Below, one piece after another: positions 1-36,341 of a stretch of DNA of 37,300 nucleotides. Location: positions 124,001-161,300 of the forward strand of contig QPGO01000169.1 of assembly GCA_008632985.1 (NCBI GenBank), in the 5' to 3' direction. The translations under genes and the position numbers were made by a program. Source of the DNA: Psammoneis japonica. Taxonomy: Eukaryota. The notes beneath the pieces were generated by a model, which was not told the DNA's origin, did not search any database, and was given only the letters and a program-made list of their open reading frames with translations. The stretch's first letter is position 1. Every line of letters starts with the position of its first letter.

Positions 1-2900
1 GTGCAACAACTCCACTTTCTGACAGCAGGCAGACCTTTGGGATGTTGGGGCATTGCACAATGCATCTTGGTCCATTTGGATTCTGGGTCCAATCCAATCA
101 TGCACAGTGCACAATTGATGACTTGTGGTTGAGTGAGGGTGATGGACCCATCTTTGTCATCATGTTCAAAACAAGTCCTGAGGCAATCTGCAATTTGCTG
201 TCATCAGCAAGGCCAAAATTTGGTGGATGTGAGTGACTTGGATGGTGACATGAGAGTGCCATTGTCCATGCCGAAGAAGAAAATTGTTCCGGTGCGGGTT
301 TTGCACAAACACATGTGTTGATCTTTGATTGCTCCCAGCCCCTGGCAAGAAGCCCTTTGCAAAGAAATTGGAGTCAGGCATGCAAGGCATCCTTGAGTCT
401 GTGCAAATTCTTGACAAGCTCATGTGCACTCTTGAGCTGGTCAATGAATTTAGATGGATCTGGAATGAAAAAGTTTGAAGGCACTCTTGCTGCTTTCATG
501 CTTGTGTCCATCTGGGCTGGGGCTTGAGGACAAGCAAATGCAAAATCAATTGATTCAAGGTGCCAGCCTTGAATCAGTGTGTGTTGACAATCATGAGATG
601 TGTGGTGCTCCACAAGGCAACAGGTGAGCAAGTGGACCAATGGCCCAATCCTTCAACAGATTTGTGCCCCCCAGCACAAAGTCATGCCTTGCATTTGATG
701 ATCTCACTGATGGGATTGCTTTTGCACTTTGTGGACCAGACCATGGGAGTGGGATGTGACCCTTTGTTTGGCACAGATTTGATTGGCACCACTTTCCAAT
801 GTTTCCTGTCAATGTGGTCTTGCAGCTCCTTCTTTGCAGTTTTGACAAATGCTTCTTGGTCAGACTGTTTCAATGCCTCTTCCAGGGTCTCAGTGTTGGG
901 GTCCCTGGATTTGGCTGCCAGAGCCATGGTGCAGTGAGAGAGCATCACAAGTGGGTGTCCTTCATTGTGTGGCATTCCAGGTCAGGTTGCAGCAAGGGCT
1001 GATCTGATGAACAGTCTTGCAGAGGGGAGCACTTTGTCATGAAGGCTGCAGCCACCTTGAATGTCCTCATGGCCACATTGGTGCACAGTTTGTTTGGTTT
1101 GACATGCCATCTGGATTGGGCTGTGTGTGGAGCTGGGGCACTGTTGTCAGCTTGCTGAGTTGGGTTTCTTGGAGTGATTGGTGTCTTCAATTCCCAAAGC
1201 TGGAGTTGGGATTTGTTCTGCATCCGACAACCCTCCTTGATCTGTGTTGATGTTGACATCTTCTGGCACATCTTCTCTGTTGTCAATGAACATTGGTGCA
1301 GGATCAGGTGGATCCTTGTTCTTGGAGGCTGCCTTGGGAGGAATGCTTCTTGGCAAGTTGACAGTGCCCTTTTGAGTTGCCTTGGCTGACTTCTCACTTT
1401 GCACCTTGGCCTTTGCCTGCCACACAGAATTGAATTTTGCATCTCAGCAACATGCTGTGCATGCAATGAAGTTGTGGTAAAATGTTTCCAGTGAGTGTGT
1501 TGAGGACAAGTGGCACATTCAAAGCATGGCTCTCAGCAAATGTGTGAGAAAGATTCCAGCATGCAAATGATTGGTCTGCTTGTTGCGGGACTTTTGCTCC
1601 TGCAAGGACAACTCTTGGATGCATGCTGGGGACCCAAAGGGGATGGAAGTGCTCAAGATTTGGCTCAACTGGTGAGCTGGAAAACAATGAGTTGGGGTCA
1701 ACTGTCAAGTGTTGGCACTCTCACAATCTTTTTGTTTTGGTGTGGCATTGCAAAGATGTTGGCACAGTGCTTGAGGGCTGCCCCAGCCACAACAATGGGT
1801 GCATTGCCTTTGGCGTTTGATGAACAGCATTCAGAGGAGCAGTTTGTGCTCCAGTGGCAATGTCCATCCTCAATGTGGTTTCTGGCTCTGCCATTCTGGT
1901 GATGAGCATTCATGCCACAAACAAAGCTCAGGGTTCAGCCGGCCACTTCAATTGCCACCTTGAATGCTTTGATGTCAAACAGACTGCTGTCAGTGACAGT
2001 GCAGGACTCGCACACATGGGCTCAAGTGATCATCCATTCAAACACCAGTTTGGCCCAAACGGTGGTGGCAGCATCCATGTTGGTCATAAGATGAGCACAA
2101 GCAAATTCAGAAAAATGGGTGACAAACACTGTGGCACCATTGCAATGTGTCACAGTGGGGGTGTCATGGTGAGTTGGTGCCAGCCCACAAGGAGCAGGGC
2201 TTGCAAGCTGGTTGATGCTGATCACTTCTCTGGGTTTGGTGGCTGGTCTGATGTTGTTTCAGCTCCACTTGCCTTTTGTTGCCTTGGGTTTGCATTGAGC
2301 TTTGCTGCAGGCACAACCAAGACATGCAGGTGGCATGGCTTTGGCAAGTTCCCTGGGACAAGACTGGCCTTGGCCATCAGTTGGAGTTTGGAAAAGCTCA
2401 ACTGGCTCAGAGTCTCACAGGTGGTGGCCAGCTTTTGCTTCTTGCATTGAGTGGTGATGACATCTAGATCAGATTGCTTGTTGGCATTGTCTGAAGAGCT
2501 GTTTTGGTTGAACATTGTGTTTTGAGGCTCATTGTTGATCGGGGCAAGGTCTGTGTCCTTGTGCAGCAATTTTGTGAGGTGCGTCATCCATTGGCTCCCC
2601 ACTTGTTCCACAGTCTTGGCAATGCTTGGCTCCCTTGGTTTCTCTTGCTCCAGTTGTGGTCTGCTCTGTTCATTGTCTGCAGCATCATGAACAGGAAGGT
2701 GGTTGCCAAGTGCTGCCATGCACAACTGTGGTGTGCAGCAGTTGCTCTGTTTGATGCAGCATGCAGTGCTCCAGATTGTTGCAAAGGCCAGTGTAGCTTT
2801 GACAGAGGAAAGTGAAATTTGTGGCAGTGATTGCATGGATGGTGGATGAAGTGATGGCAAAGGCAAAAAAAAACAGATCCACATTTTAAGTGCTGTCACT
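1..2900 (-). mobile_element. Decayed Ty1/Copia (CoDi-like) LTR retrotransposon pol fragment: integrase and reverse transcriptase, running off the window start
   Basis: Minus-strand fragments occur in Copia order. Integrase Zn-finger remnant LSQLSFSKLQLMAKA (~2300-2430). Integrase core ISINQLASP..GATVFVTHFSEFACAHLM..AKLVFE (2022-2225) and NAHHQNGRA (~1890-1913). RT remnants WKVVP..PMVWSTKCKSNPISEIIKCKA (682-800), GWHLESIDFAFACPQAP and KNLHRLKDA (374-570). Many frameshifts and stops. Confidence 0.9.
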
Positions 2901-3194
2901 CCTTTGCCAGCTGGGCCGGTGCCGGCTGACCCACACCCCCAACACACAGTCAAGTGCGGCAGGAGCTTGCATGGGATCAGCTGGAATGGGCATCACCAGA
3001 AGGTGACACCCCACCAAGACAACTGAGAAGGAATGGTTCACATGAGGGGATTTGTTGGTGTGTGTGCTTGTTGATGATGGCCACAGAAGGCACGCCACAA
3101 CTGCAATGGACAATTGCATTCAGACAGGTTTTTAAAACAGTCCACAAAAGGAGCCTTGAAGGCAAGATGAGCAGGTCATTGGAGAAAACATTCT

Positions 3195-3664
3195 TGACAC
3201 GTAGAAACAATGCTGAGTCTTGCACAGAAAAGCTGATGAGAGCAGCAAACTAAAGACCATCAAATGGCACCACAGGACAACTTGCGTTCTTGCTGAAAAG
3301 GGCCGCAAAAGAAGCAGCACATTCACCACAAAGAGCGAAGTGCTTGATTGCACGGTGGAGAAAAGAAGAGAGGTTGAAGACCAATTGGCAAGGATGAAAG
3401 TAGTCCAGAGAAGTGACACATAGACAGTCAGAGGTGACACGTAGAAACAACACCAGATCTTGTGCAGAAAGACCGATGGGAGCAGCAAATCAATGACAAT
3501 CAAATGACTCCGAAGGACAGCCAATGTTCTTGCTGAAAAGGGCCGCAACAGAAGCAGCACTTGCACCACAAAAAGTGAAGGACTTGATTGCACAGCAAGG
3601 AAAAGAAGCAGCATTGAGAACCAATTCGCAAGGACAAAAGTGGGCCAGGGAAGTGACATGTAGA
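3195..3664. repeat. Diverged tandem duplication with a 240-bp period (about 2 copies)
   Basis: TGACACGTAGAAACAA occurs at 3195 and 3435, and GTTCTTGCTGAAAAGGGCCGCAA at 3286 and 3526. The offset is exactly 240 bp at both anchors. Confidence 0.9.
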
Positions 3665-5400
3665 TCATCAGCAGCATCTGCAGATCCGCGTAGAATTTGC
3701 ACTGGAACCTGTGTGGAAAATTTTCTGAGACAACAGAATGTTGTGAGAAATGACAACCAGCATGTGAACCAAAAGGCCAGGACACTCGTCATTTTCCACT
3801 GATGAACTTTGCTCATCATGCTGTGATGAGGATGTGCCATTGGCAAACGTGGACAGAATGGGCTTGTTGGAGCCAAATCAATGCTGTCTGAGAATGGCAA
3901 CATCAGTGCAAAAACACGGGTGGAAACACACACAGGAGGTTGCCAGTGGGTGCTCACGCAGAAGAGTGATGGCAAAGGCAGCACACCATTTCAACAGAGT
4001 GGGGCCATCTTTGCACTCTTGGGCAGCATTGACAAACTGTCTGAACATGGCACTGTGGAGGGATCCTGCCATGGAGCTCCTGAGACAGCGACATGTTTGA
4101 GCTCTGCCTGTCTTGGCTGGTCACACACACAATGTGCACAGCAGCTTTGGCCTGTTCACCTTGGTGATTTGTTGTTGGCAGTTGCCACAGAGGTTGTGTC
4201 CACCAAAACAGCACATGTGCCCTGAGGGATGGAGGCACTTTGATGCTGAGTTTTCTTCAGCTCATGTGTCTTGGGAATTCAAAAGTGGCCACTTTGCTGC
4301 TCTAAATGCCAGCTCCATCAGTGCACAAAGACAAAAAAACAGAAAGCTGCATTGCCCATTTGAGAAGGGCAAAATCAAATGGCTCATAAAACTTGAGGGG
4401 GGGACAAGAAAACTGGAGGAGGCTGCGCTGCTGCAGCAGAGCTGTGGCCTTGAGGTCAGCAACTGCACTGGCCAAGGCACTCAGACCTGCTGCCTGCAGT
4501 TGAGCATTGTGAGACACTTCTTTGCATTGGGCAATTGCTCTCAGATTGGTGGTTTGGAGTGAGATGGTGACTCTGACACAGCGGCAGAGCTTTCATTGGG
4601 GCAACATCCCAGTGCTTTTGGGGCAACAGCACACAAATGTTGTGGCAAAGGTGTGTGCACATTGTGCAGAGGTTTTGTCTCAATGGTGGTGGACAGTGTC
4701 AACACATGTGACTGTGACAATGCAGGTGTGCAGAAGTTGCAACAGTGGTGCAAAAACATCACAGAAATGTGTCTCGTTGCAGCGGAGGTGCAAAGTGATG
4801 TCGCAACTGCGGTGCAAAAATGTCTCTGCACAGCACTTTGTCAAAGGGTCCCAAAGACACAAGAGCACTGAGGAGACAAGTGCTGCAACTCTCATTTGGG
4901 CTTGAAACTTGAAAGAATGGCAAAGGAAGTGAAGTGCACCAGTTTGCAGATTGCAGAAAAAGTGAATGAGAGAAAAGAAGGGAAGGCAAGGTGGTCAACA
5001 GGAACCTTGCAATCTGACTTGCTTTAAGATGAACTGGAGAGTCCATCCCTTCATCATTGGTTGCTTGATTTCCTTTTGCACACATGCAAGAGACTTGTTT
5101 TTGCCAAGTGTTGCATGAAGAACGTGCAGTGTTTTGTCGAGTGTAGATTTTTTTGCAGACTGCTTCACAGAGTTTCCACCAGTGTTCTCCCATGTTGTTT
5201 GCACTGTCCCAAGGCTGTCCAGCAGCTTTCCACTCTGCATGCTAGAGAGGGGGGCGAACTTGGCTGGTGCCAGTTGCTAGCTGCTGTTGCTTCGCGCCCC
5301 AAAAGGCAAAAACGAAAGTTTTCGCATGCAGCGAGCAGCGAGCGCGGGCTCTCTTGTTCAATCATCGGTCAAGTGCTCAGTGCTTGAGCACACATCGCGC
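3665..5400. other. Unidentified degenerate sequence depleted of TpA and CpG (probable TE or pseudogene debris)
   Basis: TA is almost absent and CA/TG is in large excess. I recognised no motif. Confidence 0.5.
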
Positions 5401-6631: not shown

Positions 6632-7049
6632 TGTTGTGATTGCAAGTGATTTGTTTTTGCGATGGCTGTCTGCATTTCATATTCATTTCACTACTGTACC
6701 CAGTGACGATTCGATTTTGTGAGCGCTGCCGTTACATTCACGCAATGGTCTTTTATCTACCGGTACATAAGATTTCATTGAGACGTGAATCGCTCTCTTC
6801 CGTTGAAGGCTCAACGGTCGTGAGAATGCAAATGTGGGAAACAATTTCTGAATATTTTATTCTATCGCCAACTATCCCATTTATTGATAAATGCTGTATG
6901 TAAGATTATATTTTTTCCCACTTCCACCCTCCACATTATTCCACATCGCATCGCACTACACTACACTAACAACATCATGTTGTCGGCTCCAGTTTGCTTC
7001 CTTTGCTCTTACTGCACAGGGTGTTGGCGATCAGGTTGCATCCATGGGA

Positions 7050-8950
7050 ACGACACTCGTGACTCCAAGAAGAGCAATGCTTGCAAACTCTTGTTTTCAC
7101 TTTGCAACCGCTCAGGCTTTGTCGGATGAGAGGGGGCGACTTGACATGCGCGACTGGTGGCTTCAACAAGCAACAAGAATGTGACAGTCAAAATTGATGA
7201 GTCATTCTTAATTGACATCAAACACATGTGCCATTCCCAGTCCCGGTGAGGAACTGCTGCTGGATCTGCCAAACCTTGCACCCTGTTGTGCAAAGCATTG
7301 CTTCCATCGGCTGACAAAAAAAGGCTCAACCCAAAATGCATCCCTTTCATTCTCACCACCCAAGAAGGTGTCACTGACCTGAGTCTATTCTGTTTTGGTC
7401 TTGTTGCACTGAAATGTCTCAATTTAGCCCACATTGTTCAGTCCATTGACATCACATGATGGGCCCCCAACAACTGGGACGTTTGAGTTCTCTCGGCTCA
7501 AATCCACGAGTCACCAAACTGACTGCATTCTTGTTGAACTGAGAGAGTTTGACCATGTTGTGATCACGTGAACATTGTGCAGTCATGAGCAAACACCAGC
7601 ACCTTCCCCAGTCCACCCGCTGCAAAAATCAAGCCACTGTCATCAAGAGCAAGAGAGATGTGTTCCAATCTGAAAAAATGCGCCTGGTCCATTGATTGGA
7701 TCACCCACCAGTTCCCACAGGGATGACACTGAATTGCATTCATGCACTGAAACCTGACTAGTGCTTCCACCTCTGTCACTCAAATGTGCTGCAATGTCAA
7801 CAACAAACCCCAAGCCACTCAAGGAAGCTGATTGACCAAATGGAAAGTCTGAAGGTTCGCCAACCGGTTTCTGTCCAAGCTGCTCCCAAGATGATGTGCT
7901 GGGATTGCATTGAAATGATTGTGCTGACCCAGTCCAGTTGTTGTGGCTTGTGTCATCCCTTGAAGATCCAACAGCAAGAATGCCCCAGTGGCCAACAGTG
8001 ACAGAGAAGTTCCAAACCCATCTTCAGCTGCCTGTCCTTCAATGTCACCTCCAAGTGGATCCCAAAGATCCGCATTGGAACCACATTTGTGTGCATTGAT
8101 GTGACCCAAAACCTGCCTGCTGCCATCATTAAAAATGGTGCTCCAACTGCTGACATGGCACCACTCTCATTCAAAGACACAGAGGCACCAAATCTGTCTC
8201 CAATGCCTTCGCCAAACAACTCTTGTCCCAAGGGAGTCTGCAATTCCGTTTGGTTGAATCAAAAGACCAAGACATGTCTGGGATTGATGGAGCCTTGCAA
8301 TGCTCCCACTGCCACAATGCTTCCTTCAGCAACAAGGCAACAGACTTGCTGAGCTCATCACCTGCTGCTGCTCTTCCAACAAGCGCTTGTCCAACGGGCT
8401 GCCACATGGACAGTTTGGGAGTGCAACAACAGGAGTTGGAGCTTGCAAAGGAGGAAGAGTTGGCCCAGGTGTTGGCTGTCTTGTTGGAAGTGGTGTGGGA
8501 CTTGTTGAGGGTGTTTCTGTGGGCAAGCTTGTCAGAAGAGGCACAGGACGGGCTGCACTGTTGTTCCCACAATTGTTGGATGTCACCACAGCAGCAATTG
8601 CCACCACAAGACAAACAGTCAAAATTGCAATGCCCAAAGAAACATTTTTGCCAGTGCCTTCTTGTCCCATCACCCCACTTGTTGGAAGTGTTGCCGCTGC
8701 CATTCTTGGATGTTTGAGCAACCTCAGCATGGGCAAGAGGTGCAGACTGGTCTCCCTCTTTGAGATGACTGATTTGTTCTTTAGCACAGCCCACCTCATG
8801 CCGCATGTTGACAAGGTCCGTGGCAGAGGAGTGGGCAAGCTCAGCCTCCAAAAGGATTGTCCCATCATGCCTGTCAGGTGGCAGTGTGAGATCTGAGTTG
8901 ATGCTCTCCAAGGCAGTCATGGCACTGATGTGTTGTTGTCATCTTGTTCA
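7050..8950 (-). pseudogene. Pseudogene of a membrane-anchored FG-GAP-like (beta-propeller) repeat protein with a Pro/Thr-rich stalk
   Basis: Fragments in several frames: TM segment LGIAILTVCLVVAIAAVV; stalk PTETPSTSPTPLPTRQPTPGPT; repeats WQPVGQALVGRAAAGDELSKSVAL, LGQELFGEGIGDRFGASVSLNESGAMSAVGAP, WDPLGGDIEGQAAEDGFGTSLSL and FGLSLFLSADGS. Frameshifted and depleted of TpA and CpG. Boundaries approximate. Confidence 0.8.
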
Positions 8951-11900
8951 CATTGAACTCCCCTGCTGCCTGGGCATGTGGCAAAAGCACCAGCAGAGTT
9001 GGAGACATTGATGGAGTGCATGTGTTCAGACTCTTCTTCATCTGCTTGTTCTTCATTGTGATGAATGTGATGATGTTCTTTCATGCCAGGAGAACCAGGC
9101 CTGGGCATTGGGGCTGGTTCATCTGATGCTTCTTCCCCTTCTTCTTGCTGTTTTTTTTGAATCCTTGATGCTTGCCAAACAGTTTGTCCCTTTTCATCAT
9201 TGATGTCTTCTTGCTGGCATGTTTCATGGTTGTCATGGTTGAAAAACTGAAAGAGAGGTCAGGTTGTGTCACAATGCACAAGCAGCAAGCTGTGTTCAGT
9301 TGCTGCATCTAACTCAGTCATGGTTTGTTGCCAAGACTCAAGCAAGGCGCGAAAAAATGCTGCAACAAAAAATCTTTTGAAATTGTCACAATGGCCACAA
9401 TTGGTGTGTGGAGTTGTTGTGCACAATGTGGTGTCACACTGTGCCAGCAAGGGGTGAATAGTGCCAGCAATTTGTGGGATTTCAATTGAAATGCTGTCCC
9501 ATCTTGGGTGTTTTGTCAACAAACAATTGAGCAACACCTGGAGTGGGGTTGTGTGGGGTGGCATTTCATGCCTTTCCTGAGAAGCCACACAATTTGCACA
9601 CAGACAGACAGCCTGCCTGAACAACATTTCTCTGGCACCAGCCGGGGTGGCTTCTGCACAGCAGCAGCTCTCATCCAGCCCTGAAAGACTGTTTTGTTGA
9701 CATGATTGCTCAAATTTAACTTTTTAAACAAGAAAATTGCGGTGCTGACAATGCCTTTTTTGCTGAGATTTTGCAGTCATCAAGAGGCCTGGCCCTGCAG
9801 TGCTCACACTTTGCTGATGACTGGCAGAGAGAAGCCACCATGCACCAGGTGCTTGCGACAATCGCTCACATGAGAAGATGGTTCACACACAATGCATGAT
9901 GTGCCAACACAAAATTTAAACTTGTTCTGTTGAGCACAGGCTGATGGGACCCAGCTGTGTGAGGTGCCATCTGCAAGCAAGATGTTGGCAGTTGGCAGAG
10001 CACCAGAGCTCAGGGTTGCCCAGCCAATGACAAGTCAGGGTGTCTTGGGATGGAGATGAGCTGCAGCTCTGGGGAGGAACTCACAGTGAAGAACCACAAC
10101 ATTTTGCATTTTTGTGTCTCAGTGAAAAACTTCATGCTCACTTCCATGTCACTTTGGATTTGTTCCCAACAACTTTTTGACAATTTTTGCTGCATTCTCC
10201 CATGTCTGCTACAGAGTGCAACTGTGGGCATGGACTTTCTAAAATTTTGAGCATGAAAAGGTGTGGCAGTGCCACAAAAGGGGTTCTTTCTTGTTTTGGT
10301 GTCAAAGACAGGTGAGTCCATTGTCCACACCAGCACACAAGCTGCAGAGTTTGCACGCAGAATCATGCAGGACACATGTCCAAAATTCCCACCCAGAGCT
10401 GGGGTGTGTTGTTAAAGTCCACCATGAAAAACATTTTTTGCTGTGTGCTGCTGTGCACAAACCAATGTCACAGGTCACAGAGGGGCACACTTCACACAAA
10501 GCAGCTGTGGGACAAGAATGCAGCATGCATGAACAGCCAGTGAGACTTTCGCTCCTGCATCTGCATGACACACACACACAAGCAGCTTCACAATTTTCAA
10601 TTGCAATGAAAGAGGCTGTTGCACTCTGCATTTTCGTCACATCACATTTTCCTCATGTGAGACAGCCCCTCCAGTTCTTGCACAACTTGCCCTTGAAATT
10701 TTCTAAAAAAATGTTTTACCACTGCTGTCTCCTGTGTGTCACCCAAAACATGGCCAACTGCAAACTCCCCATGTCTCTCTCACACTTGTGAGTTGTTCTG
10801 GAAGTGGGCTTGTTGTTCAAGAGAAAGAGAAAATTGCCATTGTGTGGCAGCATTGCAGCAGCTGTTGAGCTGGAAAATTGAAAGTCAAACTAGAAGCTGA
10901 TCTGATTTGGTGCACAACCAGTCTGATTTGGCTGTTGTTTCTTGCTTGAATTGTGCCTTGTGGTGATGGCATTTGCTCTTTCATGTTTGTTCAGAGGCAA
11001 AGAATCTTGGTGTGCTCGAGACAAAAGTTGCTGACATTTTTTTGTGGCCACAGCACAAACTGCATTTTGCAGAAGGAAAAGGCAAGCAGTGGCATTGCAG
11101 CAGCTTGTGCTTTTGCTCCCCTTCTGGTGCACAGAATTGCAGCTGAAAATGGGCTTCATGAAAAAGACAAAAGTTTTAGAAAAACAAGAGAGCCTGGCTC
11201 AAGCAATGTGCTCAAATTGTGAGCTGCCAGTTGGCTCCATCTGACACCAGGTGTTCTCCAACTAAGAGAGCACAGCCAATGGCCCCACTCTGTGATTCCA
11301 AATCAAGGCTTTGAACCCAAGTGCCAGGCATGCCATCAGACATTCTGTGAGCAATGAAAGCAGGGTGTGTGTGATTTTCCCTTTTGATTTGTGTGCAAAA
11401 GAACAGCAAGACACACAAGCACTGCACTTTCACAGAAGCTGAGCAACAGCAAGAACATTCATTGCTGTGGTTGTGCTGTGCATGTTGGCCATGTGCAAAG
11501 CCCCTCCTGAAAAACATGTGTGATTTGCAAGAAAGCACGGCTGCACAGCTGCAAATGCTCAAAACAACTTAGATGCACTGACTTGCAGCTGCTGCAAGAG
11601 TTGCAAAATTTAACACAAAAGGAGCTTGACACACAAGACAGAATGTTGTGGGGAAAACAACAATGGAGCAACCCCAGCAGGCGGTTGTTCAATGGCAAGA
11701 ATCAGGGTTGTTGAAGCATTGCACAAAGGCTCTGCACAATGTGACACTCTACATCATCTGCTTGTTGGGGCAGAACAAACTTGAACAAACTGTGTGTTGT
11801 GGTGTTTGTTGTCAACCCACAGAAAAACAAAACAAAACAACTCCCCGCATGGTTGTTCAATGGCAGCAAGAATCAGGGCTGTTGCAGCACTGCCTGAAGG

Positions 11901-12350: not shown

Positions 12351-12442
12351 GTATGTTTTGGTCGAGCACCCTCTGGCGTTGTCACCGAACCTCTTGTTTG
12401 CTGTGCTTAAATACAAATAATTATTTCATTAACTGGCTGTTT

Positions 12443-28541: not shown

Positions 28542-29824
28542 ATTGTTATCTGTAATTTATTCTGTGAGGCGATATCAAAACAGTGCCGCCTTTTAGCTAG
28601 GTGACGAAGGGATCAAATAAAGAAGAAGGGTACAACACTCAGCAAAAAGCAAAAAGACAATGTGGCGGTCAATCAAGATACAAACACAGAACGGGTGTGA
28701 TAAATTGCGATGGAATAAAGTGATTTTTGCAAAGCTCGTTCGACACTTACAGCGTAAGCCAAGCTAGAGCAGAAGAAGCGAAGAGTAGAAGCCCGGGCGG
28801 CGCCTCAACAACTACAACAACAACAATAGCTAATCACAGACGTGTGGAGCTTTGTGATGTATGCTCCACTTTCCACTTGTGACACTACTTAGCTAGCTAG
28901 TAGGGCCCTACTTGTGCTCCATGGAAATTTTGCGCAACCCGCGCGGCCTGTCCAGCGCAGTGATCTCCTCACAGGCTCAGATATTCTATTTGACCGTCAG
29001 AAGAGGTTGGGAACCTGTCCCGAAAATCTCGATTCAAACAGACGCAAAGACAAAAGACCTCCTACTCGAGTTGCACGCAACAAACTGCGGCGCAGCACAA
29101 TGATGAGTGCCGCCGGTGTCACCGTAGGCATTTTGACATCTCAACGAGTCTTTCACCGATTTTCCAGTTTCTTGTTTCATTCTTAGCGATAATTTCACAA
29201 TCTGTCCGATTGGTTTGGTCCCATTGTGTGTCAATGAGAATTGTGGATTTGTGGTTTGTCCAAAGTTTGCCAAAAAATCGATTGTGAGATTTCAGGGGCC
29301 CTGGCTGGCAGTGGACAGGTACGTGTAGACAGGTGCGTGAGTGCTGTTTCGATTCTCAATGGCGCTTTCACCAGTTTTCTCACTTCTTTTTTGTTTTGCG
29401 TTAATCTTTTTCTGTTGTGCAGAAAGTTAAAGGGTGTGGAGCATTTTTGTGGTGATCCACTTTTTTGGGAAGAGCTGCATCACTGACAGCATTGCCGGTG
29501 CGCACCAGCAACAAGTGCAACGGCGACACCGTGAGCAGGTGCTGTCATCATTGCTGGTGTGTACGGGGAAGAAGTGCGCGCCACAGTGTTGCCATGAGCG
29601 CAAAACTGTTGGCACTTTTTGCAGGTTGGAACAGTGCAAACAAGCTCGTGAAGGATGCAGGTCAGCACTGCGTGAGCAAGCGCGGAGATTACGGATTCGT
29701 CTCGTGCGGTGCTGTGAAACTGGAGACATGAGAGCAAGTCATAGCCATGGATTAGAGTGATGCAAGCGAGCGCATGGCAGCTTGTGGTGTTTTGAAACTG
29801 AAGAATGGCAAGTTTGCAGACTTG

Positions 29825-30576
29825 TCAATCAAAAGAAACGGCCAGTTCTGCTGCGATGTTGACCTCCTCTCGGCATTTGTTGTGCTTGAGGCAATCCAAA
29901 ATGTGCTTGCACCCCATGCAACCCAAATCCTTTGTTGACATGTCAGGTGCATGTGTCACAGATGTGCCACTCACTGTTTCCGTCGTGTCCTTTCTCGCTC
30001 CAACAGATTCTTCAGATTCTTCGCATGGGAGCCCTTGGAGCTTCAGAGTTTTCGTGTAAGCCGCCTCAATGCAACACACCCACATGTCGCAATCATTTGT
30101 GTGCCTTGCTTGTCGAGGCATTTGAGCCCTCATCCACTTGGCTTGGGTGTTGATGAGAGGCGTGGAGGCAAACACATTCTGCAGGTCAAGCAGCGACGTT
30201 CGTAGAAATTTGGTGCCAAGTCAAAAAATGCAAACAGATCCTGTCCGGCTCTGGTTTGGTCAAGAACCTTCAAAGCCCAGTGGCCAGCTTCGTGCGGTCC
30301 ACAGAAGACTTGTGTGAAGATTAACTTGTCTTTCTCAAAATCTGTTTCCACTTTTCCTTGTTCTTGCAGTTTTTTCAAGAATGGTGTCCAACCCGCTTCC
30401 GTGCCATGCATCAAATGTTCGCAATGGAGAGAGCTGACAAAGTCATCAGTGCTGCGCCACACCCCGCTGTCACGGTGCTTGTTTGCCAATGAGTTCAAGC
30501 ACATGGTTGTGCAAAAGCCATTGATCATTGTTCCTTGGTTGTCAATGGCACTGAGCTCTTCCGGATCGAGTTGCAC
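29825..30576 (-). pseudogene. Ulp1/SENP-like (C48) cysteine peptidase domain carried by the Crypton
   Basis: GHWALKVLD (His), FAFFDL (Asp, resembling FDS) and, after a frameshift, PRQARHTNDCDMWVC (resembling Q....DCG, Cys), in the canonical His-Asp-Cys order. Confidence 0.8.
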
Positions 30577-33092
30577 TGCGCCAAAGTCAAGTTCCGATGC
30601 CGGATGCGGCCTCTAGCTTTGTTTGATGATGAGAGCAGGTTCCGCTTGCGCACTTCTTTTTTCACCGCTTCCGCAGTGGAGCCGACTTCAGAGAGCTCAT
30701 TCAGTTTGCGTTTCTTTGGTTTCTGGATGCTGCTCTCAGAAGTTTTTTAAAGTTTTCGAAGCGAACAGGCTGTTGTTTGCCAATGGATTTGATCAGTGCG
30801 CCTTTTTCTCCCGGTCGCTGTCGTTTCAACCGATTGAAGAATGCTCTGAATTGCCGGAGATGCATGGAGCGCAGCAACTGCAGATGTTGCACCTTTCTTC
30901 TTTGTTGTTGTAGCCTCATCAAATGCATTGCATGGAAATCGGAGATTGCACAATGTGGCTTTGCGGCCCTTCGTTTCTTTCAGGTCCCTGTCTGCAAGGC
31001 TTTTCCAAGGCGGCGTCAGGAAGAGCTCACCTTTAGAACCAATGCGCTGCTCGCCAAAATGCCAACAAATCCATGCGTCCAACGGCGAAAGCTTTGCATT
31101 CAGTTCATGGTCTTTCGGAGTGCCGTGCCAACTGCCATCTCCCCAATCAAAGGCAGCTTTCTTTGTTCTTGTGCCTTTTCTGTCCTCACCTTCTGCAGCA
31201 ACAATCTTGCTGTCATCGTGACCCGACCCTGAGTCACATTTCACAGACACTTCATCCAATTTCTTTGAGATGGGGTCCAGAAGGACTTCTTGGATCACAT
31301 CCATGGTCAATTCCCCACCACCAATCTGACGTTGGTCCAACACAGAGACGAAAAGCTTTTCAATTTGGGAAGGGACCGACAGAACAATTTTTAGAAGAAA
31401 CGACTGATGTCCAAACATCTTGGCAACTGGAGTCATTCCAGTGAAATTGACTTTCCATGATGACTGGCCAGGATTTGACCATGGATGGCAGCACTTGCAG
31501 CACGAGCCAAGGTTCCGAATGACCTCTTCACGGCAAACAACTGAGGTGCGAAGTGGATTTGTCCGGTGGAGCCTGTTTCTTAGAAAACTCCAATGAAACA
31601 CTGATGAAGCAAGCAAGTGTCGACAAAGCATGAGTTGCCCATTCGACATGTCCCCAAACAGGCTTCTGACACCATCCAACACATCGTTTTCTGAGGGGAT
31701 GATGTCGGAATTTTCTGCTGTGCCGGACTGCGAAGACAATCATTCACAGGTTGCTCGTTTTCAAAAAATGCAGACACGTCTCCAAGACCGGTCTCTTCTG
31801 GGTCGGCAGGTGACACATCAAAGCATGGCATCGAAACCATAAAGTTGGACGAGTTCACATCTAGGACAGCAACCGTGCGTCCGCAAACTTGGTCTCCAGC
31901 CGCGCCTTGTGTTGCAAACAAATGTCTTTCACCTGACCCATGGTCCATCCAGCTCGCACGCATGCAGCAGCAAAGCTCACACCACTGGTGGTTCCGTTGC
32001 AGCAGCATGCAGCAGCGCCTTTTTGAATGGAGTGAACGCCAATGCTTTTCGGATCAACTCCAAGGCCTCGCATCTCCTCATCGTGTGCTCGCACCACTCG
32101 ACCCAGCAGTTTGCAAAATCGATCATGCTGGCTGTTCCCTCCAACAGAGGACCGGACTCTCGTCCATGAACAAAAGCAGCACGAAAACGAGCAATGGACA
32201 GAACTGGACAAATCACGGGATTTAACGGGTTGGCGTGTGTGTGCCGTTTCCTCGCAGCTTGTTCTCCCAACATGTTGGTCTTGGAGTGAGCAAATTGCAC
32301 AATCATGGCATCACCCTCCCACCCAATGTGCTCCAGCAGCACAAGAACCGTGTTGCATGAGCGACACATCAGGTTCCAAGTGAGCATGAGGAAGCAGTGC
32401 CCGAATGTTGCTTCTGTGCTTTTGTCTTCAAGCAGCCATTTACACAAGGCACAGCACACCTGGAATGGAAGGGGAGCTTTTCCATCTCCCAAAGCCTCCC
32501 CAGTTGCATTGCGGGCTGCAGCAGCTGTGTTCTTTAAACCAGTCACAGCTTTTTTGAGTTTCTGTTTAAACTGCTCCGTCGGAACAACCTCACACTGCCC
32601 GAACAGATGCGTGAGTGACGCCCGATGACCTCCGCACGACTTGAGACAAAGGTTTGTTGTTGTGCTGTCCCTGAGCTTGCAGAAGTGAGCCATGTGCACA
32701 GCAACAGTTAACTTCTCCAATGCAATTGGGTGGTGCATTGGACTGGCACGAAAAATGTGCTTCATTGCCACCGCCCTTGCATGCTCCATGCAGCCCTTGC
32801 CTGATTCCACGCGGTCCAAATCGGCCTTCAAGTCTGCGTGTAGAATTTTGTAATTTTCGCTTGCTTTCTTTGCAGAGTTCTTGAAATAGAGAAACACAAT
32901 GAATCGGGAGAGAGAAAGGCGGTGCCCATGCTTTGCACCACGATCGATGTTCGCATCCACAATCCACTCCACACCTTCCATGAACTCGTCCTCATCATCA
33001 GAAAGCTCGTCTTCCAAATCATCACCTTTGGACCCACCACCAGTTCGAGCAATGTCATCCCTGTCCATGCAGGCAAGGAGGTCCTCAATCAT
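29825..33092 (-). mobile_element. Crypton-type tyrosine-recombinase DNA transposon (pseudogenised) with a C-terminal Ulp1/C48 peptidase module
   Basis: YR motifs: GDGKAPLPF, LTWNLMCRSCNT (catalytic Arg), FAHSKT (Lys), HTHANPLNPVICPVLS, IGVHSIQKGAA (HxxR with R>Q) and RAGWTMGQVKDICLQH..AGDQVCGRTV. Crypton-like C-terminal region FDWGDGSWHGTP..AWICWHFG..PPWKSL. Peptidase motifs follow. Several frameshifts. Confidence 0.88.
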
Positions 33093-33281
33093 CTAGGGTT
33101 TGTTGTTGGCAATCGTCAACACTGCCATGGTGTTGTTTTCTCTTCAACGAAAAAAGCAACAACAAATCGACAGGGAACGAATGAAGACAAGAGACGAGAG
33201 GCGTGTGGAGGAGCGCGGAGTGGGAGGCGGGCTGATGTCAGTTTGCCTTGCACAGACACAAGAGGGAACCATGACAGATGG

Positions 33282-33410
33282 TGCCAACCGAGGGTTGGCA
33301 ATTTTCCCTTGAAGATTTTGACAGCGTCGCAGATTGCACGCAAAATGTGCTGATTCGAGTGAGTCAAAAAAAGTCGTTTCAACGGAACATTGCCAACCAG
33401 AGGTTGGCAA
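33282..33410. repeat. Two copies of an interrupted palindrome, TGCCAACC-NNN-GGTTGGCA
   Basis: TGCCAACCGAGGGTTGGCA at 33282-33300 and TTGCCAACCAGAGGTTGGCAA at 33390-33410, 190-320 bp upstream of the YR ORF start. Confidence 0.85.
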
Positions 33411-34360
33411 AAACGTCTGTTTGCCACACCGGAACGCGTCAGCAGTTGGCAGAATTCCAGACTTTCAACCTCCTCCCCCCTCCACCCCCATCGTTTCGTG
33501 CAGCATGTTGCACTGAAATGACACCAGGCCACAGATTGTGACAAACTAAAATGCACAAGGAGAGCACCTGCCACAGCAGCATTTTCACAGCTGCTTTCTT
33601 TTTTTGGCTCTCTTCTGAGGTGTGCAAAAAAGTCTCTTTGAAGGTTTCACAAGGGCTGCAACAAGAAGGGGGGGGCTTCTTTCACAAAAAAATGCACAAG
33701 GCACTTTGAAGCAAAATGTGCGCAGCTCCCTGTGTTGCAAAAAGAAGTGGTCCTCAGCCAACAGGAAGGGGGGAGAGTGGCAGAGCCAACATGAGGCTGC
33801 ACCAGAGGGCTGTGCTGCTCTCATGGGCGGTGCCGAACTTCTTGTTTGCTGTGTTGACAAAGCAGGGTTTTGAGCCCAACTTTCCACAAAATTGGAAATC
33901 ATGCGTGGGCAAAGCAGAAGATGGAAAGTTTGCAGTTTGCCCAGCAAAGATGTGGCAACTCTGAAAATTCTGCACACAGAGTTGCGCGCAGCAGCCGATG
34001 GCTTGACTGCTCCTGCCGCTTTTGCAAATGGTTCAGCACACGAGGGAAAAAGGCAAGATTTCAATTTTTGCAGCAGAGCACAGTCTCCCATGGTTGAAAC
34101 AAATGGCTGGCATGTGCCAAAAATCCCATGCTTCAAATGTGTGAGACTCTCCAGCTCTGGAGCAGCAGCATCAAATGATCTCTGTCTTTCACAGTTGGAT
34201 TTTAGAGTTGAACTTCATGGTGATTTTCATCCATTGACCAACAAGAGCACATCTGTCCATCCCCTCTCACAACGCACAAGAATCCAAAATTGGTCGCACA
34301 CGTCCTGCGCACAACACAACACAAAAATTCCACACACAACAGCAAACACCACCTTTCACC

Positions 34361-34750
34361 ATGGTGACGGCTTGCTCCCCACGTGTTGTTGTCCATCAGG
34401 TTGTCTCCAAGGGCAAGACACTTGGCACCTCCAAGAAGTGTGCCACACTCAAGTTTGGTTTCGCCAACACCCAAGCTTTGTCAGGTGGGTTGGTGGGAGC
34501 AAATTGCCATGGCAGCAAACACAAGGTCAATCTCATTTCTCATTTGGAGTCTCAGTGCCGGCAAGCATCAAATTTTGCCAATGGCGAGGAAGTGCACACT
34601 GTTCAGAAAGCTGTGTCAGTGGCTGGACAGCCAACAGAAGCTTTCAATGCAGCTTTTTGCTGTGCAGTCTGGGCTGCAGAGCCCTCAAGTGTCAGGTCAT
34701 GTTGGCTCTGGTGCAGCCCATCAGAGTCTTGCCATGTGATTTGATTGTTG
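34361..34750 (+). pseudogene. Pseudogene of a conserved diatom hypothetical protein
   Basis: An A/C-rich leader and ATG are followed by KGKTLGTSKK.ATLKFGFANTQAL..G.VG.NC.GS.H.V.LI / WSLSAGKHQIL / NGEEVH. I recall this motif string from diatom hypothetical proteins (unverified). Frameshifted and TpA-free. Confidence 0.55.
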
Positions 34751-34898
34751 GTGGTGTTTGGATTCATTGAAAGTGCAAGATCATTCAATTGGGAATGTCT
34801 CAAATGAGAAAAATGTCCAGGGTCATTGGCAGTGATGGTGGCCTGCATCATGAACCCGATGTTGATCTGTGCGCAGGTCATTGTGCGGGTGCTGTCCT

Positions 34899-35400
34899 TC
34901 AAGATGTGCCGACACTCCTTTTGAAGTGTGCCTCTTCCATGAGCAGTGATGCCAACAACTTGTTCCTCTCTTTCTTCCAGGCATCCTCAGCATCTGTGTT
35001 GATCCCATCTTCTTTCTTGGCGATTTGTTCTGAAATGACTCTGCCACAGGACCCTCCTCTCACCATCTCAACAACACACTTGTGAGCCGATTGCAACAAT
35101 GTTGAAGTGTCCTTCCTTTGTCCTGCTGACAAATGAGCACCAACTGCTTCCAAGCCTTGGCAGCTTAAATGTGCAAGCAGATTTGCTTGCTTGCATTGAA
35201 CAAGATTGACACGAGAATTTGCCATGGTGCCGCCACATCTCTCACTCCTTTGTGACCCTCATGAACTCTGTCACTCCTTTCATTTTGCAATGAACAGCCT
35301 TCACATGCTGTCACACAAGCCCATCAAATGCCTTCACTGTCTGCATGTGTGTCTTGCAGATTGTGCCTTGTTTTGTGCAACAATTGTGTTGTTTCCCCCA
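34899..35400 (-). mobile_element. Possible decayed Copia gag fragment
   Basis: VNLVQCKQ..CVVEMVRGG..G..AWKKERNKLLASLLMEEAHFKR loosely resembles diatom Copia gag (VVE..GG; A.E..LA.LL...AD..R). Weak match. Confidence 0.35.
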
Positions 35401-36341
35401 GCTGCCTTGTCTTTCTCTGATGCGGCCCTTGAAGCACATCATTTTTTGCTCAGCCAGGCACACTCTTCAGATGTTGAAGAATGCACCCCTGGCACATTGC
35501 TGTTCCTGCAAACTCATCAAATGAAATGTCTGGGGTCTCACAAAACAGCGAGTCTGGAACAATTTTTTGGAACATCACACACAGAAATGCACGTGCAAAG
35601 CATGTGGCAGATGACAAAAAACACAATTGTGTCGTCACACATCAGCACTCTGGCAAGCTCCCAGCACCTGGGGGGGCTGGAACGCATGTTCCAGGTGTGC
35701 AGATGGATTTGAATTGGATTCGTGCAAATTTGAGCTAAAAGCAAAACTGCCACAAGCTCATTTGCTGTGCATGGGCAAAGGCATGGGGGCTTGAATGAAA
35801 GTTTGACTGTGCCAGAAACATCTGCAACATTTTCAGCGCTGTGCATCAAAGAGCTGGCTTTTGAGTCAGTGACGGGCCAATGCTCGGTCTCCCCAAAAAA
35901 AGGCCGAAGCTTTGGAAAGACCGCATTGTTCGAAAATGAGGGAGAAAACAAGGAGAACTGAAAAAAATCCTTTTTTCCTGCATCCCCCCGGGTTCGGCCC
36001 AACCGGCGCCATCCGTGTCCGCGGATCCGCGTTTTGTCAGTCCCGCGTCTCACAGGCTCCTTCAAGTTCGAGGGAAGTTTGGCAAGCGTCATCCAGACGT
36101 CTCAGGGCCCGGGATAACGAAGCGCGCATTTGCGCCCGCGGGCAAAAAGCGCCCTGCCGGGCGGAAGGCACCCGGAAAACCGCGCCCTGCTGGGCGCTTC
36201 TCTTGTTCGCAGGGCGCCCGGCAAGTGATGAGTGCCCACAACACGTACAATCCTACGTGCTCTGGTAGCACTTTGACAGCGACTCGTCCCTCCAACCGTT
36301 TCTCACATAAAAAACACACAAGCAACCATGAGCGGCGCTCT

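Follow-up and report, generated by a model that had tools for sequence, protein, structure and literature searches.

This locus raises the question of why long stretches of DNA hold almost no TA dinucleotides while the genes beside them have ordinary numbers. The window, that is, the whole stretch of 37,300 bp analysed, is diatom nuclear DNA; the diatom assignment comes from homologues of the eIF2B-epsilon gene at 26223-28541. When it was divided into 500 bp windows, depleted stretches at about 1-5250, 7000-12300, 13750-15100, 18000-19000, 24250-26000 and 29300-36100 had 0 to 6 TA per window (observed/expected ratio, o/e, 0.00-0.19), and the windows outside them had 11 to 40 each (o/e 0.33-0.87). 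Boundaries drawn from the gaps between successive TAs gave six sharply bounded TpA-erased blocks that occupy 21,420 bp, so that the six TA-poor blocks proposed in an earlier note are real, with limits within about 300 bp of those given there:

1..5277, unstranded, block 1, TpA-erased, truncated by the window start; 19 TA, o/e 0.055 (CG 0.13, CA 1.99, TG 1.75)
7011..12024, unstranded, block 2, TpA-erased; 22 TA, o/e 0.063 (CG 0.14)
13708..15139, unstranded, block 3, TpA-erased; 6 TA, o/e 0.062 (CG 0.43)
18143..18944, unstranded, block 4, TpA-erased; 2 TA, o/e 0.038 (CG 0.18)
24144..25983, unstranded, block 5, TpA-erased; 5 TA, o/e 0.037 (CG 0.14)
29191..36245, unstranded, block 6, TpA-erased; 33 TA, o/e 0.074
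26223..28541, minus strand, intact, intron-less eIF2B-epsilon gene with ordinary TpA, a contrast between blocks 5 and 6

The pooled blocks (21,420 bp) held 87 TA, whereas about 910 would be expected if TA were as dense there as in the rest of the window, and their o/e ratios were 0.06 for TA, 0.31 for CG, 1.78 for CA and 1.74 for TG, the last two bearing out the CA/TG excess claimed before. The remaining 15,880 bp had 675 TA (o/e 0.59) and ratios of 0.97, 1.18 and 1.21 for CG, CA and TG. Tyr made up 0-0.5% of the residues in block ORFs versus 2.6-4.1% in homologues; in the eIF2B-epsilon gene it reached 2.3%, with a TA o/e of 0.33-0.62. The effect was confined to discrete blocks. An untargeted, genome-wide hypermutability of TpA, with the blocks as old unconstrained DNA and the genes protected by selection, would agree with an o/e below 1 in the rest of the window and with the finding that every identified block content is dead sequence. 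However, whole-locus o/e values in 17 ordinary related loci run from 0.49 to 0.81 and so include the ratio of 0.59, TA density at the block edges switched over about 100-200 bp, the non-coding AT-rich DNA adjoining block 5 kept 40 TA per 500 bp (o/e 0.87), and a young Crypton-like copy with largely intact CpG was already TpA-erased, which makes this reading very unlikely.

A Pfam scan of 117 ORFs gave no family at or above the cut-off, and no content could be assigned to blocks 3, 4 and 5 or to most other parts of blocks 2 and 6. The following relics were recognised:

113..2309, minus strand, frameshifted Ty1/Copia pol relic (integrase and RT) in block 1, from HMMER homologues and tblastn columns
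7646..8342, minus strand, degenerate FG-GAP_2-type repeat pseudogene with stops and frameshifts in block 2, from tblastn
31332..33092, minus strand, Crypton-like (tyrosine-recombinase-type) ORF relic in block 6, from homologues, metagenome loci and Foldseek

The Copia relic had 77 homologues by HMMER, with RVT_2 in 12 of the 12 scanned. For the Crypton-like relic, the homologue P0126 matched Phage_integrase at E 0.11 only, below the cut-off, and every Foldseek match listed was a tyrosine recombinase (best E 2.5e-3, TM 0.31, from a low-confidence model). The homologues P0206 and P0207 of the pseudogene carry FG-GAP_2 (E 3e-17 and 1e-19), and their repeat motif RVYQ appears here as AHK and VHE; the pseudogene is the relic of a cellular-type gene, without recognisable transposon character. 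The claim that erasure is confined to blocks holding the Copia relic, the Crypton-like relic and the pseudogene was upheld.

The direction of change was read from conserved codons, using for the Copia relic consensus columns built from local tblastn alignments. This relic kept 205 of 317 consensus codons and none of the 12 Tyr codons, which had become TGY (Cys) in six cases and CAY (His) in three. Among the 230 consensus codons of the Crypton-like relic, 12 Tyr columns were listed (11 distinct), with one Tyr kept, CAY in four (one ambiguous) and TGC in three. Taken together, 1 of 23 distinct Tyr columns was kept and 16 had CAY or TGY, while 6 of the 22 Tyr changes were other than simple TA transitions (F, V, T, S, G). 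All non-Tyr, non-Arg columns were retained far more often (339/490; p=2.6e-10), including 25 of 33 Lys columns and 33 of 38 His and Cys columns, none of which had turned into Tyr. These results showed that the direction of change was TA>CA and TA>TG, and both outcomes were present on the coding strand (A>G, Tyr>Cys, nine; T>C, Tyr>His, seven), as had been claimed for both strands.

Of the individual codons cited in the earlier note, two were fully supported: CAC stands at 401-403 where 44 of 49 homologues have Tyr, and at 32235-32237 where all six homologues have it. The remaining examples stood in part. ACA was found at 32238-32240, although an ancestral ATA is only plausible there (I in three homologues, V in two, L in one); TGT was found at 530-532, with an ambiguous ancestral Tyr (F in 27 homologues, Y in 17); and in the C-L-Q-H at 31909-31920 the first Tyr>Cys change held, but the proposed ancestral YLRY did not, the only two aligned homologues reading Y-L-H-H. 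Foreign or specialised DNA that had always avoided TA, through codon usage or nuclease avoidance, would have this composition, and nothing further speaks for it. Against it, conserved Tyr codons were replaced, including the one in the recombinase motif H-x-Y-A-N-P of the Crypton-like relic, reading frames were broken, and relatives elsewhere had ordinary TpA. Of 21 metagenome loci that carry related recombinase genes, 20 had a whole-locus TA o/e of 0.34-0.81, and most of these loci retained most Tyr columns (e.g. 11/11 and 10/12). These relatives are not TpA-free, and the chance that native composition explains the blocks is close to nil.

Most blocks were strongly depleted in CpG as well (CpG o/e 0.13-0.43). 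In the Copia relic a single Arg-consensus codon of 17 was kept (AGG) and TGN or CAN stood in 13, so that CGN>TGN/CAN accounted for 13 of the 16 changed Arg codons. In block 6, the part from 33501 to 36245 had CG at 0.41 and TA at 0.03, and the part from 29191 to 33500 largely kept its CpG (o/e 0.67) with TA at 0.10; 9 of 16 Arg CGN columns of the Crypton-like relic were kept. TpA loss was therefore no side effect of CpG decay: it was separable from the CpG>TpG/CpA change and ahead of it in one sub-block. As stated before, 5mC decay and fungal RIP both fail to explain it.

With the blocks assumed to have started out with the composition of the gene-rich rest of the window, TA survival depended on context, being 37% for YTAR, 6.6% for RTAR/YTAY and 0.7% for RTAY. 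In the blocks, 55 of the 87 surviving TAs were YTAR; outside them the figure was 109 of 669 (OR 8.8, p=2e-19), and in the 17 ordinary related loci it was 352 of 1919. The one other strongly TA-depleted sequence found, the metagenome contig L008 (14 TA), had no such excess (3 of 14). A model of strand independence predicted a survival of 0.050 for the mixed class, and 0.066 was observed. The products RCAR+YTGY and RTGR+YCAY numbered 1527 and 962, compared with 1551/914 predicted under a TAY rule and 1337/1128 without it. All seven Tyr>His codons were preceded by a purine and all six Tyr codons that followed a pyrimidine became Cys (p=0.034; strict set p=0.044); the Tyr samples are small, with 23 distinct columns in all. 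Each strand thus appears to have been hit independently, with about a 5-fold preference for 5'-TAY-3' over 5'-TAR-3'.

ADAR-like A-to-I hyperediting of double-stranded transposon transcripts, fixed via reverse transcription, would hardly give this pattern. ADAR favours a 3' G, and TAG was among the spared contexts; erasure was near 100%, far beyond editing preferences; A>G and T>C both occurred on the coding strand; and a DNA-transposon-type element and a cellular pseudogene were equally affected. The presence of the non-transposon pseudogene points to action on chromosomal DNA and not on a transposition intermediate. RNA editing is highly improbable for these reasons, even though block 1 is a retrotransposon and ADARs prefer a 5' U, as discussed in a preprint on Bigelowiella natans (Mettrop et al., bioRxiv 10.64898/2026.01.13.699255).

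In sequence data the two bases are equivalent, since A>G on one strand is indistinguishable from T>C on the other, and every A>G at TAY is a T>C at RTA. The T of 5'-(R)TA-3' in silent DNA could then be the base that is modified (5hmU or base-J type) by a TET/JBP-like dioxygenase and miscopied or misrepaired as C, TpA decaying as a modified-base dinucleotide like 5mCpG. Co-located loss of TpA and CpG in five of the six blocks would fit two epigenetic base marks on silent DNA; dinoflagellate DNA carries 5hmU preferentially at TpA and TpC, and in trypanosome telomere repeats the T of TpA bears base J. On the other hand, 5hmU:A pairs are not known as strongly mutagenic. The literature consulted has no record of modified thymine in diatoms, and near-saturation ahead of CpG decay in the first part of block 6 suggests an active mutator and not a mark that decays slowly. 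According to the preprint text, mutations in B. natans came in bursts and in a subset of lines (10.64898/2026.01.13.699255), and we regard thymine-side chemistry as unlikely.

Duplicated sequences inside the blocks recorded how single sites had been resolved:

3195..3664, unstranded, tandem duplication in block 1, 230 bp twice, 77% identical
11683..11968, unstranded, tandem duplication in block 2, about 115 bp twice

The copies differed by six adjacent CA-versus-TG double differences in 230 aligned bases and by four in 113, respectively, implying that the two copies had resolved a single ancestral TA or CG in different ways. A third tandem duplicate inside the blocks had none in 76 bases, a control gene pair had one in 1076, and three such pairs were among the 40 differences listed against other genomic copies. 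Contigs built from exact 31-mers of a public run, X1, which may be the assembly's own source data, matched block 4 without a differing letter (8787 nt, depth 59) and enclosed block 5 with six differing letters (5350 nt, 23163-28512, depth 62). Modified heterochromatin bases miscalled in sequencing or polishing (T as C, A as G), with the TAs persisting in the cell, are a far-fetched explanation in view of this agreement at a depth of about 60, although neither the assembly nor X1 has a recorded sequencing platform and the effect is limited to probable heterochromatin. Miscalls would not yield CA in one tandem copy and TG in the other, the same signature was present in the independent metagenome contigs L008 and L001 (3' half), and such changes arise as real mutations in B. 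natans, according to the preprint text (10.64898/2026.01.13.699255).

Summed contig depth of blocks 4 and 5 was about 62, that of the single-copy genes nearby, and in block 6 it was 91-2010, suggesting several similar genomic copies. The stretches 28640-29306 and 36246-37300 had high summed depth and normal TpA, and a 1.1-kb gene pair, 85.6% identical, was untouched. Erasure neither requires duplication (blocks 4 and 5) nor follows from it (the gene pair and the two high-depth stretches), and the repeat-targeted, RIP-like trigger proposed earlier is not supported.

A real, region-limited TA>TG/CA mutational process is very probably responsible for the blocks. In sharply delimited stretches, non-functional DNA has undergone near-saturating TA>TG and TA>CA transitions, the targets being the Copia relic, the Crypton-like relic, the FG-GAP-repeat pseudogene and three pieces without assigned identity, while adjacent genes and AT-rich spacers were spared. 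A locally targeted enzymatic base conversion would act in chromosomal DNA, probably guided by a mark of silent DNA (chromatin or small RNA) and not by repetition as such; like the earlier note, we infer silenced-chromatin targeting and a dedicated mutator. The most likely chemistry would be deamination of A by a TadA/ADAT2-like enzyme to inosine, which is then copied as G; this candidate is suggested by its native site U-A-C-G, which has the same 5'-T and 3'-pyrimidine neighbours. That the enzyme is an adenine deaminase, with TadA/ADAT as the leading guess, is put forward tentatively. It is likely that the system is of the same kind as in B. natans, and the explanation as a whole (targeted TA erasure of the B. 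natans kind by adenine deamination) is favoured with some reserve. The process could be extinct, its footprint being read from sequence alone.

Like ascomycete RIP, the diatom process left region-limited, saturating transitions, destroyed transposon frames and a dinucleotide footprint. In contrast, RIP changes C>T mostly at CpA and makes TpA, whereas here TpA was destroyed and CpA/TpG made, and RIP requires duplicated DNA, which blocks 4 and 5, at single-copy-like depth, do not. With 5mC deamination in diatom transposons, whose methylation is DNMT5-dependent in Phaeodactylum (PMC9998398), it shares the decay of a self-complementary YpR of silent DNA to TpG/CpA. Such CpG decay was also present in these blocks, as the Copia Arg codons indicated, but it acts on the C of CpG, cannot remove TA, and lagged behind TpA loss in 29191-33500.

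The tRNA adenosine-34 deaminases TadA and ADAT2-ADAT3 and the base editors derived from them target an A with U/T on its 5' side and a pyrimidine on its 3' side (the consensus given for TadA, native and off-target, is U-A-C-G), and their product inosine reads as G, as proposed for the diatom blocks; their natural substrate, however, is the tRNA anticodon loop. We know of no established natural DNA adenine deaminase targeted to chromatin. APOBEC3 (C>U, retroelement cDNA) and ADAR (A>I, dsRNA) in animals likewise hypermutate selfish elements by deamination in a dinucleotide context, but they act on another base or nucleic acid, are strand-specific through the replication intermediate, and do not act on DNA transposons and pseudogenes resident in the chromosome.

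The earlier remark that no described pathway was known to do this is outdated by the closest parallel. In B. natans, integrated NCLDV and virophage DNA undergoes TpA-only A>G/T>C hypermutation, with de novo mutations in the viral inserts at about 6e-7 per site per generation, and further TpA-poor, CpA/TpG-rich clusters lie elsewhere in the genome, reverse-transcriptase and DDE Pfams being enriched in TpA-poor CDS; ADAT2 was put forward as a candidate, its DNA activity in amphioxus and trypanosomes being cited (10.64898/2026.01.13.699255). Both cases, as far as the preprint text goes, share exclusive TpA>TpG/TpA>CpA change, the same event on either strand, restriction to certain regions in an otherwise ordinary genome, and a long-term footprint of clustered TpA depletion with CpA+TpG gain; with 0.06 and 1.76, the diatom blocks fall within the limits that the preprint sets for clusters (Rho TpA <=0.43, CpA+TpG >=1.52). 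They differ in host (diatom, a stramenopile, versus chlorarachniophyte, a rhizarian), in targets (transposon relics and a cellular pseudogene versus viral inserts) and in extent, the diatom erasure being near-complete (o/e 0.06 versus Rho 0.45 in the B. natans NCLDV region). Diatom erasure was accompanied by CpG decay and showed 3'-pyrimidine preference and strand independence, none of which is mentioned in the main text of the preprint, figures and supplements aside, and the mutation rate was measured de novo in B. natans, whereas the diatom process is known from its footprint. A TpA-erasing A:T-to-G:C footprint had thus been reported once before, in an unrelated alga, and the diatom case is new.

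A 500-bp sliding count of TA dinucleotides, together with the gaps separating consecutive TAs, placed the limits of six TpA-erased blocks as follows:

1-5277, block 1
7011-12024, block 2
13708-15139, block 3
18143-18944, block 4
24144-25983, block 5
29191-36245, block 6

Six TpA-poor blocks had been claimed in the earlier note, and the limits obtained here agree with those within about 300 bp. The pooled blocks (21,420 bp) had a TA observed/expected ratio (o/e) of 0.06, with CG at 0.31, CA at 1.78 and TG at 1.74, and the remaining 15,880 bp contained 675 TA (o/e 0.59), with CG at 0.97, CA at 1.18 and TG at 1.21. According to the TA density of this remainder about 910 TA were expected in the blocks, and 87 were seen. 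The edges of the blocks were sharp in the 37.3 kb examined, the TA density shifting over approximately 100-200 bp; to the left of block 5, an AT-rich spacer with 40 TA per 500 bp is followed by 659 bp without any TA. The AT o/e fell from 0.92 in the rest of the window to 0.78 in the blocks and that of GC rose from 1.06 to 1.27, which fits a change of TA into CA or TG, because ATA and TAT are then lost, GTA becomes GCA and TAC becomes TGC. A possible edge at 36000-36200, where CpG appeared intact and TpA erased, was dropped because this segment has 66% GC and few TA are expected in it.

Pfam searches with 117 stop-to-stop ORFs of the blocks and with three read-through frames of 1-5400 gave no family at or above the cut-off, the sole match being Kelch_6 (E 0.0097, below the cut-off); eight additional ORFs gave no Pfam family and an Rfam search gave no match. 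Content could be identified in block 1 (Copia), block 2 (a pseudogene segment) and block 6 (a recombinase), and none for blocks 3-5. When the read-through frame of 1-2401 (minus strand) was used as a HMMER query, 77 homologues were obtained, and RVT_2 was found in 12 of the 12 scanned and gag_pre-integrs in 8 of the same 12. Local tblastn localised the Copia relic at about 113-2309 of the minus strand, spread over three frames, the integrase-side HSPs falling at about 1200-2400 and those of RT at about 1-600. The relic itself had no Pfam match, and comparison of the window with itself revealed neither an LTR pair nor any block resembling another block. The RVT_2-bearing homologues and the tblastn placement in three frames together indicate that block 1 contains a frameshifted Ty1/Copia relic.

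The ORF at 31980-33092 (minus strand) in block 6 had eight homologues without Pfam annotation and 21 related metagenome loci. One of the homologues matched Phage_integrase below the cut-off (E 0.11), and all the Foldseek matches listed for a structure model of low confidence (pLDDT 46) were Cre, Xer, Flp or integrase chains, the best of them with an E of 2.5e-3 and a TM of 0.31. When the recombinase profile was run against PDB sequences, all matches were designed helical repeat proteins and of no relevance. The Phage_integrase match and the Foldseek matches make an element of the tyrosine-recombinase (Crypton-like) type likely, not proven; the name Crypton is our assumption, based on family motifs. 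The segment 7646-8342 (minus strand) of block 2 could be aligned to two FG-GAP_2 repeat proteins, the alignments being interrupted by stops and shifts of frame, and it is a cellular-type pseudogene.

In order to read the direction of change, consensus codons were taken from window codons aligned by tblastn, with a homologue agreement of at least 60% and at least five homologues for the Copia relic or three for the Crypton-like relic. The Copia relic gave 317 consensus codons, 205 of them the same as the consensus. None of its 12 Tyr columns was kept (six were TGY, coding for Cys, three CAY, coding for His, and three other codons), and His was kept in 13 of 16 columns and Cys in 6 of 7. The Crypton-like relic gave 230 consensus codons, with 12 Tyr listed and 11 distinct, since 32127 and 32126 represent one homologue residue in overlapping frames; one of these was kept, four were His (one site ambiguous), three Cys, two Phe and one Val, and His was kept in 7/8, Cys in 7/7 and Arg in 9/16 columns. 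Taking both relics together, Tyr was kept in 1 of 23 columns versus 339 of 490 for the non-Tyr, non-Arg residues (p=2.6e-10); Lys, whose codons are A-rich and TA-free, was kept in 25 of 33. CAY or TGY was found in 16 of the 22 changed Tyr columns, which are end states and not de novo events that were watched, and none of the 38 columns with a His or Cys consensus had turned into Tyr. The recombinase homologues contain 2.6-4.1% Tyr, and related loci retain their Tyr columns (11/11, 10/12 and 8/9, for example). Because Tyr was lost in the relics and retained in the homologues, and His and Cys never became Tyr, the ancestral codon was TAY, changed by TA>CA and TA>TG. The direction proposed in the earlier note, TA>TG and TA>CA on both strands, was thus borne out.

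These results bear on two known processes. Fungal RIP converts C:G into T:A and creates TpA, and it fails on direction, because the blocks lose TpA and no His or Cys column gained Tyr. RNA hyperediting of the ADAR type, fixed by retrotransposition, predicts A>G in the transcript strand only and in retroelements only; however, the coding strand showed both A>G (nine Tyr to Cys) and T>C (seven Tyr to His), and the affected sequences also include a DNA element of the recombinase type and a pseudogene. The 3'-neighbour preference of ADAR is also at odds with the context found in the blocks.

Duplicated sequences were compared as well, including two paralogous genes located outside the blocks:

5551-6635, minus strand, paralogous gene, intact, 359 codons, no Pfam family
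12442-13532, minus strand, its paralogue, intact, 377 codons, no Pfam family

Adjacent CA-versus-TG differences between tandem duplicates within the blocks numbered 6 in 230 aligned bases, 4 in 113 and 0 in 76 (the third and shortest), and the untouched paralogous genes had 1 in 1076 aligned bases. Each of these CA-versus-TG pairs represents one palindromic ancestor (TA or CG) resolved oppositely in the two copies. Between block 6 and its other genomic copies in X1, a public sequencing run, 861 of the 1146 differing places were transitions, and at least three CA/TG pairs were present among the 40 rows of differences displayed (1130 more exist).

Five of the blocks were poor in CpG too (CG o/e 0.13-0.43). 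In the Copia relic only 1 of 17 Arg columns was kept (an AGG codon), and 13 of the 16 changed codons were TGN or CAN, as the decay of CGN predicts. The CpG loss in these five blocks is ordinary methylated-CpG decay, a process already documented in transposons of diatoms (PMC9998398). As a cause of the blocks, deamination of 5mC accounts for this CpG part only, because C>T is unable to remove TA, and in 29191-33500 a TA o/e of 0.10 lies beside a CG o/e of 0.67, with CGN Arg codons mostly intact. The loss of TpA is therefore a process distinct from CpG decay and, in 29191-33500, the faster of the two; the earlier note had rightly stated that neither 5mC decay nor fungal RIP removes TA. gBGC was dropped, as it is not TpA-specific and is incompatible with CG>TG/CA alongside.

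The TAs surviving in the blocks had a strong context bias, YTAR making up 55 of 87 versus 109 of 669 in the rest of the window (OR 8.8, p=2e-19); in 17 related loci of ordinary composition it made up 352 of 1919. Relative to the TA density of the rest, survival was 0.7% for RTAY, 6.6% for RTAR plus YTAY and 37% for YTAR. A model with strand-independent hits set by the base 3' of the A, its baseline taken from gene composition, gave s(TAY)=0.082 and s(TAR)=0.61, a survival of 5.0% for the mixed class (6.6% seen) and a hit intensity about 5-fold higher at TAY than at TAR. The 5' T of the target is absolute and a 3' pyrimidine is favoured about 5-fold, the ratio of survivors to expected being 0.02 for TAT, 0.05 for TAC, 0.20 for TAA and 0.16 for TAG. 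Under this TAY rule, R-TA-R should give R-CA-R, and Y-TA-Y should give Y-TG-Y. We counted 1527 RCAR plus YTGY and 962 RTGR plus YCAY products, the expectation being 1551 and 914 under the rule and 1337 and 1128 without it. In the polarised sample, which is small, the Tyr codons that became His follow a purine in 7/7 cases and those after a pyrimidine became Cys in 6/6 (p=0.034; p=0.044 in a strict set of 15). The 14 TAs of L008, a metagenome contig encoding a recombinase relative, had no YTAR bias in this small sample (RTAR 1, RTAY 3, YTAR 3, YTAY 7). Judged from sequence, the context rule fits A>G at 5'-TAY and T>C at 5'-RTA equally well. A flanking-base preference had not been part of the earlier note.

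X1 contigs (exact-word depth about 60) had no differing letters over 17301-22059, which includes block 4, and six over 23163-28512, which includes block 5; it is possible that the assembly was itself built from X1, whose platform is not on record. In L008 (1-2201) the TA o/e was 0.10, with CG at 0.30 and CA/TG at 1.6, and in L001, another metagenome locus encoding a recombinase relative, TA was ordinary (0.55-0.84) and then erased (0.0-0.2) over the 3' half (1000-2052). The exact 31-mer depth of 60, the CA/TG alternatives in duplicates and the footprint in L008 and L001 make a base-calling artefact unlikely, and this same footprint suggests that the process probably extends beyond the P. japonica genome.

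Two further genes were found between the blocks:

15310-16278, minus strand, HtrL_YibB gene, intact, 322 codons, Pfam E 2e-15
26223-28541, minus strand, eIF2B-epsilon gene, intron-less, 772 codons, with its domain set

The eIF2B-epsilon ORF had 258 database homologues, the top ones being unnamed proteins 56-58% identical to it, so that the source species has no near relative among them, and among the 120 listed every named match was from a diatom (Mayamaea, Seminavis, Chaetoceros, Cylindrotheca, Nitzschia, Cyclotella, Leptocylindrus), which indicates that the window is diatom nuclear DNA. Pfam describes the HtrL_YibB family as bacterial, and 15310-16278 may, on its sequence, be a bacterial-type gene within a diatom. 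A contig of 2788 nt from X2, a second public run, labelled 'DNA?', covers 19103-22059 of the plus strand and skips 20226-20305 and 21615-21704, so that X2 looks like RNA, as if spliced; a third run, X3, gave no cover of the window. The skipped segments correspond to two short introns, and the gene, on the plus strand, ends in an ankyrin-repeat ORF at 21774-22562.

Erasure also has consequences for annotation. Over six frames the blocks contained 989 TGA, 80 TAA and 60 TAG stops, and the rest of the window 621, 290 and 271. The erasure of TAA and TAG gives rise to long spurious ORFs, and of the 32 window ORFs that reach 150 aa or more, 20 are located in blocks; translations of block ORFs contain much Cys, His, Gln and Trp, with 0-0.5% Tyr. 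Such ORFs are a trap for gene callers, and TpA erasure conceals transposons from profile searches, as the 117 block ORFs without any Pfam family at or above the cut-off illustrate.

The process had been described as repeat-targeted in the earlier note, and in this respect the evidence did not bear the note out. The summed X1 contig depth of blocks 4 and 5 was about 62, equal to that of the flanking genes, and that of block 6 was high (91-2010). Two stretches adjoining block 6, 28640-29306 (X1 depth 560) and 36246-37300 (680-883, with 883 over 36644-37300), had normal TpA (o/e 0.5-0.9), and contigs of the RNA-like run X2 extended over them too; Pfam searches with five ORFs of 35940-37211 found nothing. 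These stretches may be young or active repeats escaping the process. The paralogous genes, which flank block 2 and are 85.6% identical over 1.1 kb (76 transitions vs 62 transversions), had normal TpA, and duplication at this level of identity does not appear to draw the mutator. The repeat dependence of RIP is likewise not borne out, given the gene-like depth of blocks 4 and 5, the untouched gene pair and the untouched high-depth stretches. A repeat-induced trigger is thus not supported as far as summed contig depth can show, which is not a copy number and does not reflect past copy number.

Since the pseudogene was affected, the targets are not limited to transposition intermediates and DNA resident in the chromosome is hit as well. 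The blocks are probably marked by chromatin state or small RNAs. The lack of X2 cover on blocks 4 and 5 was considered as a sign of silence and discarded, missing cover proving nothing. In one X1 contig (depth 41.5), position 28961 is linked to 33509 through 22 letters absent from the window, and 28859-28939 is replaced as well. The contig looks like another copy of the surrounding repeat lacking the 4.5-kb segment with the recombinase ORF, which would then be a nested insertion. Over 31739-32113 a contig of 375 nt matched exactly, with a depth of 32, about half the single-copy depth.

The claim of a mutator that changes TA to TG/CA within limited blocks, its targets being dead selfish DNA and a pseudogene, was right in substance, with its direction now shown. 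For the agent, adenine deamination is tentatively favoured as quite possible, because the consensus target given for TadA, U-A-C-G, fits the T-A-Y context; the enzyme would then be a natural, chromatin-directed DNA A-to-G editor. A modified thymine, 5hmU or base J located at TpA, is a serious rival, as the TAY preference can equally be read from the T side as RTA, and we consider it improbable. In a bolder reading, an ancient programmable genome-defence enzyme system common to diatoms and chlorarachniophytes would find silent or selfish chromosomal DNA under chromatin guidance and turn the A of 5'-TAY-3' sites in both strands into inosine, as a natural DNA adenine base editor, and TpA, and thereby Tyr codons and TAA/TAG stops, would be erased far faster than methyl-CpG decays. 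The shared editor would also be a main reason for the unrecognisable state of old transposons in these algae. This reading as a whole is possible but rather doubtful.

The earlier note knew of no described pathway; however, a recent preprint (Mettrop et al., bioRxiv 10.64898/2026.01.13.699255) describes TpA-specific A>G/T>C hypermutation in the rhizarian alga B. natans. It was the only report on TpA hypermutation, in diatoms or elsewhere, in a literature search judged by titles and abstract starts, with subscription journals outside its scope. According to its text, the mutation rate of two viral regions integrated in the genome is raised about 1000-fold in mutation-accumulation lines, in bursts that differ from line to line, 230 of 231 events being A>G or T>C and all at TpA; the genome has 124 clusters of TpA-poor, CpA+TpG-rich windows, RT and DDE Pfams are enriched among TpA-poor CDS, and an ADAT2-type DNA adenine deaminase is proposed by the authors (10.64898/2026.01.13.699255). 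The diatom blocks have all the sequence-level features described there: their TA (0.06), CA (1.78) and TG (1.74) ratios lie within the cluster thresholds of the preprint (Rho TpA <=0.43, Rho CpA+TpG >=1.52), and the TpA loss is region-limited, 0.06 versus 0.59 elsewhere in 37.3 kb. In contrast to the viral targets of B. natans, those of the diatom include a Copia relic, a tyrosine-recombinase element and an FG-GAP-repeat pseudogene, so that transposons and a pseudogene join viral inserts in the range of targets. The diatom case also differs in host lineage, near-saturation and the accompanying CpG decay, and its flanking-base preference has no mention in the text of the preprint, figures and supplements aside. 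The diatom case thus adds a member to the kind of system that this preprint alone has described, its saturated footprint placing TpA-specific A:T>G:C hypermutation, reported once before, in at least two SAR lineages, and it adds mechanistic constraints: strand-independent action, an approximately 5-fold preference for a 3' pyrimidine (or 5' purine) and independence from CpG decay.
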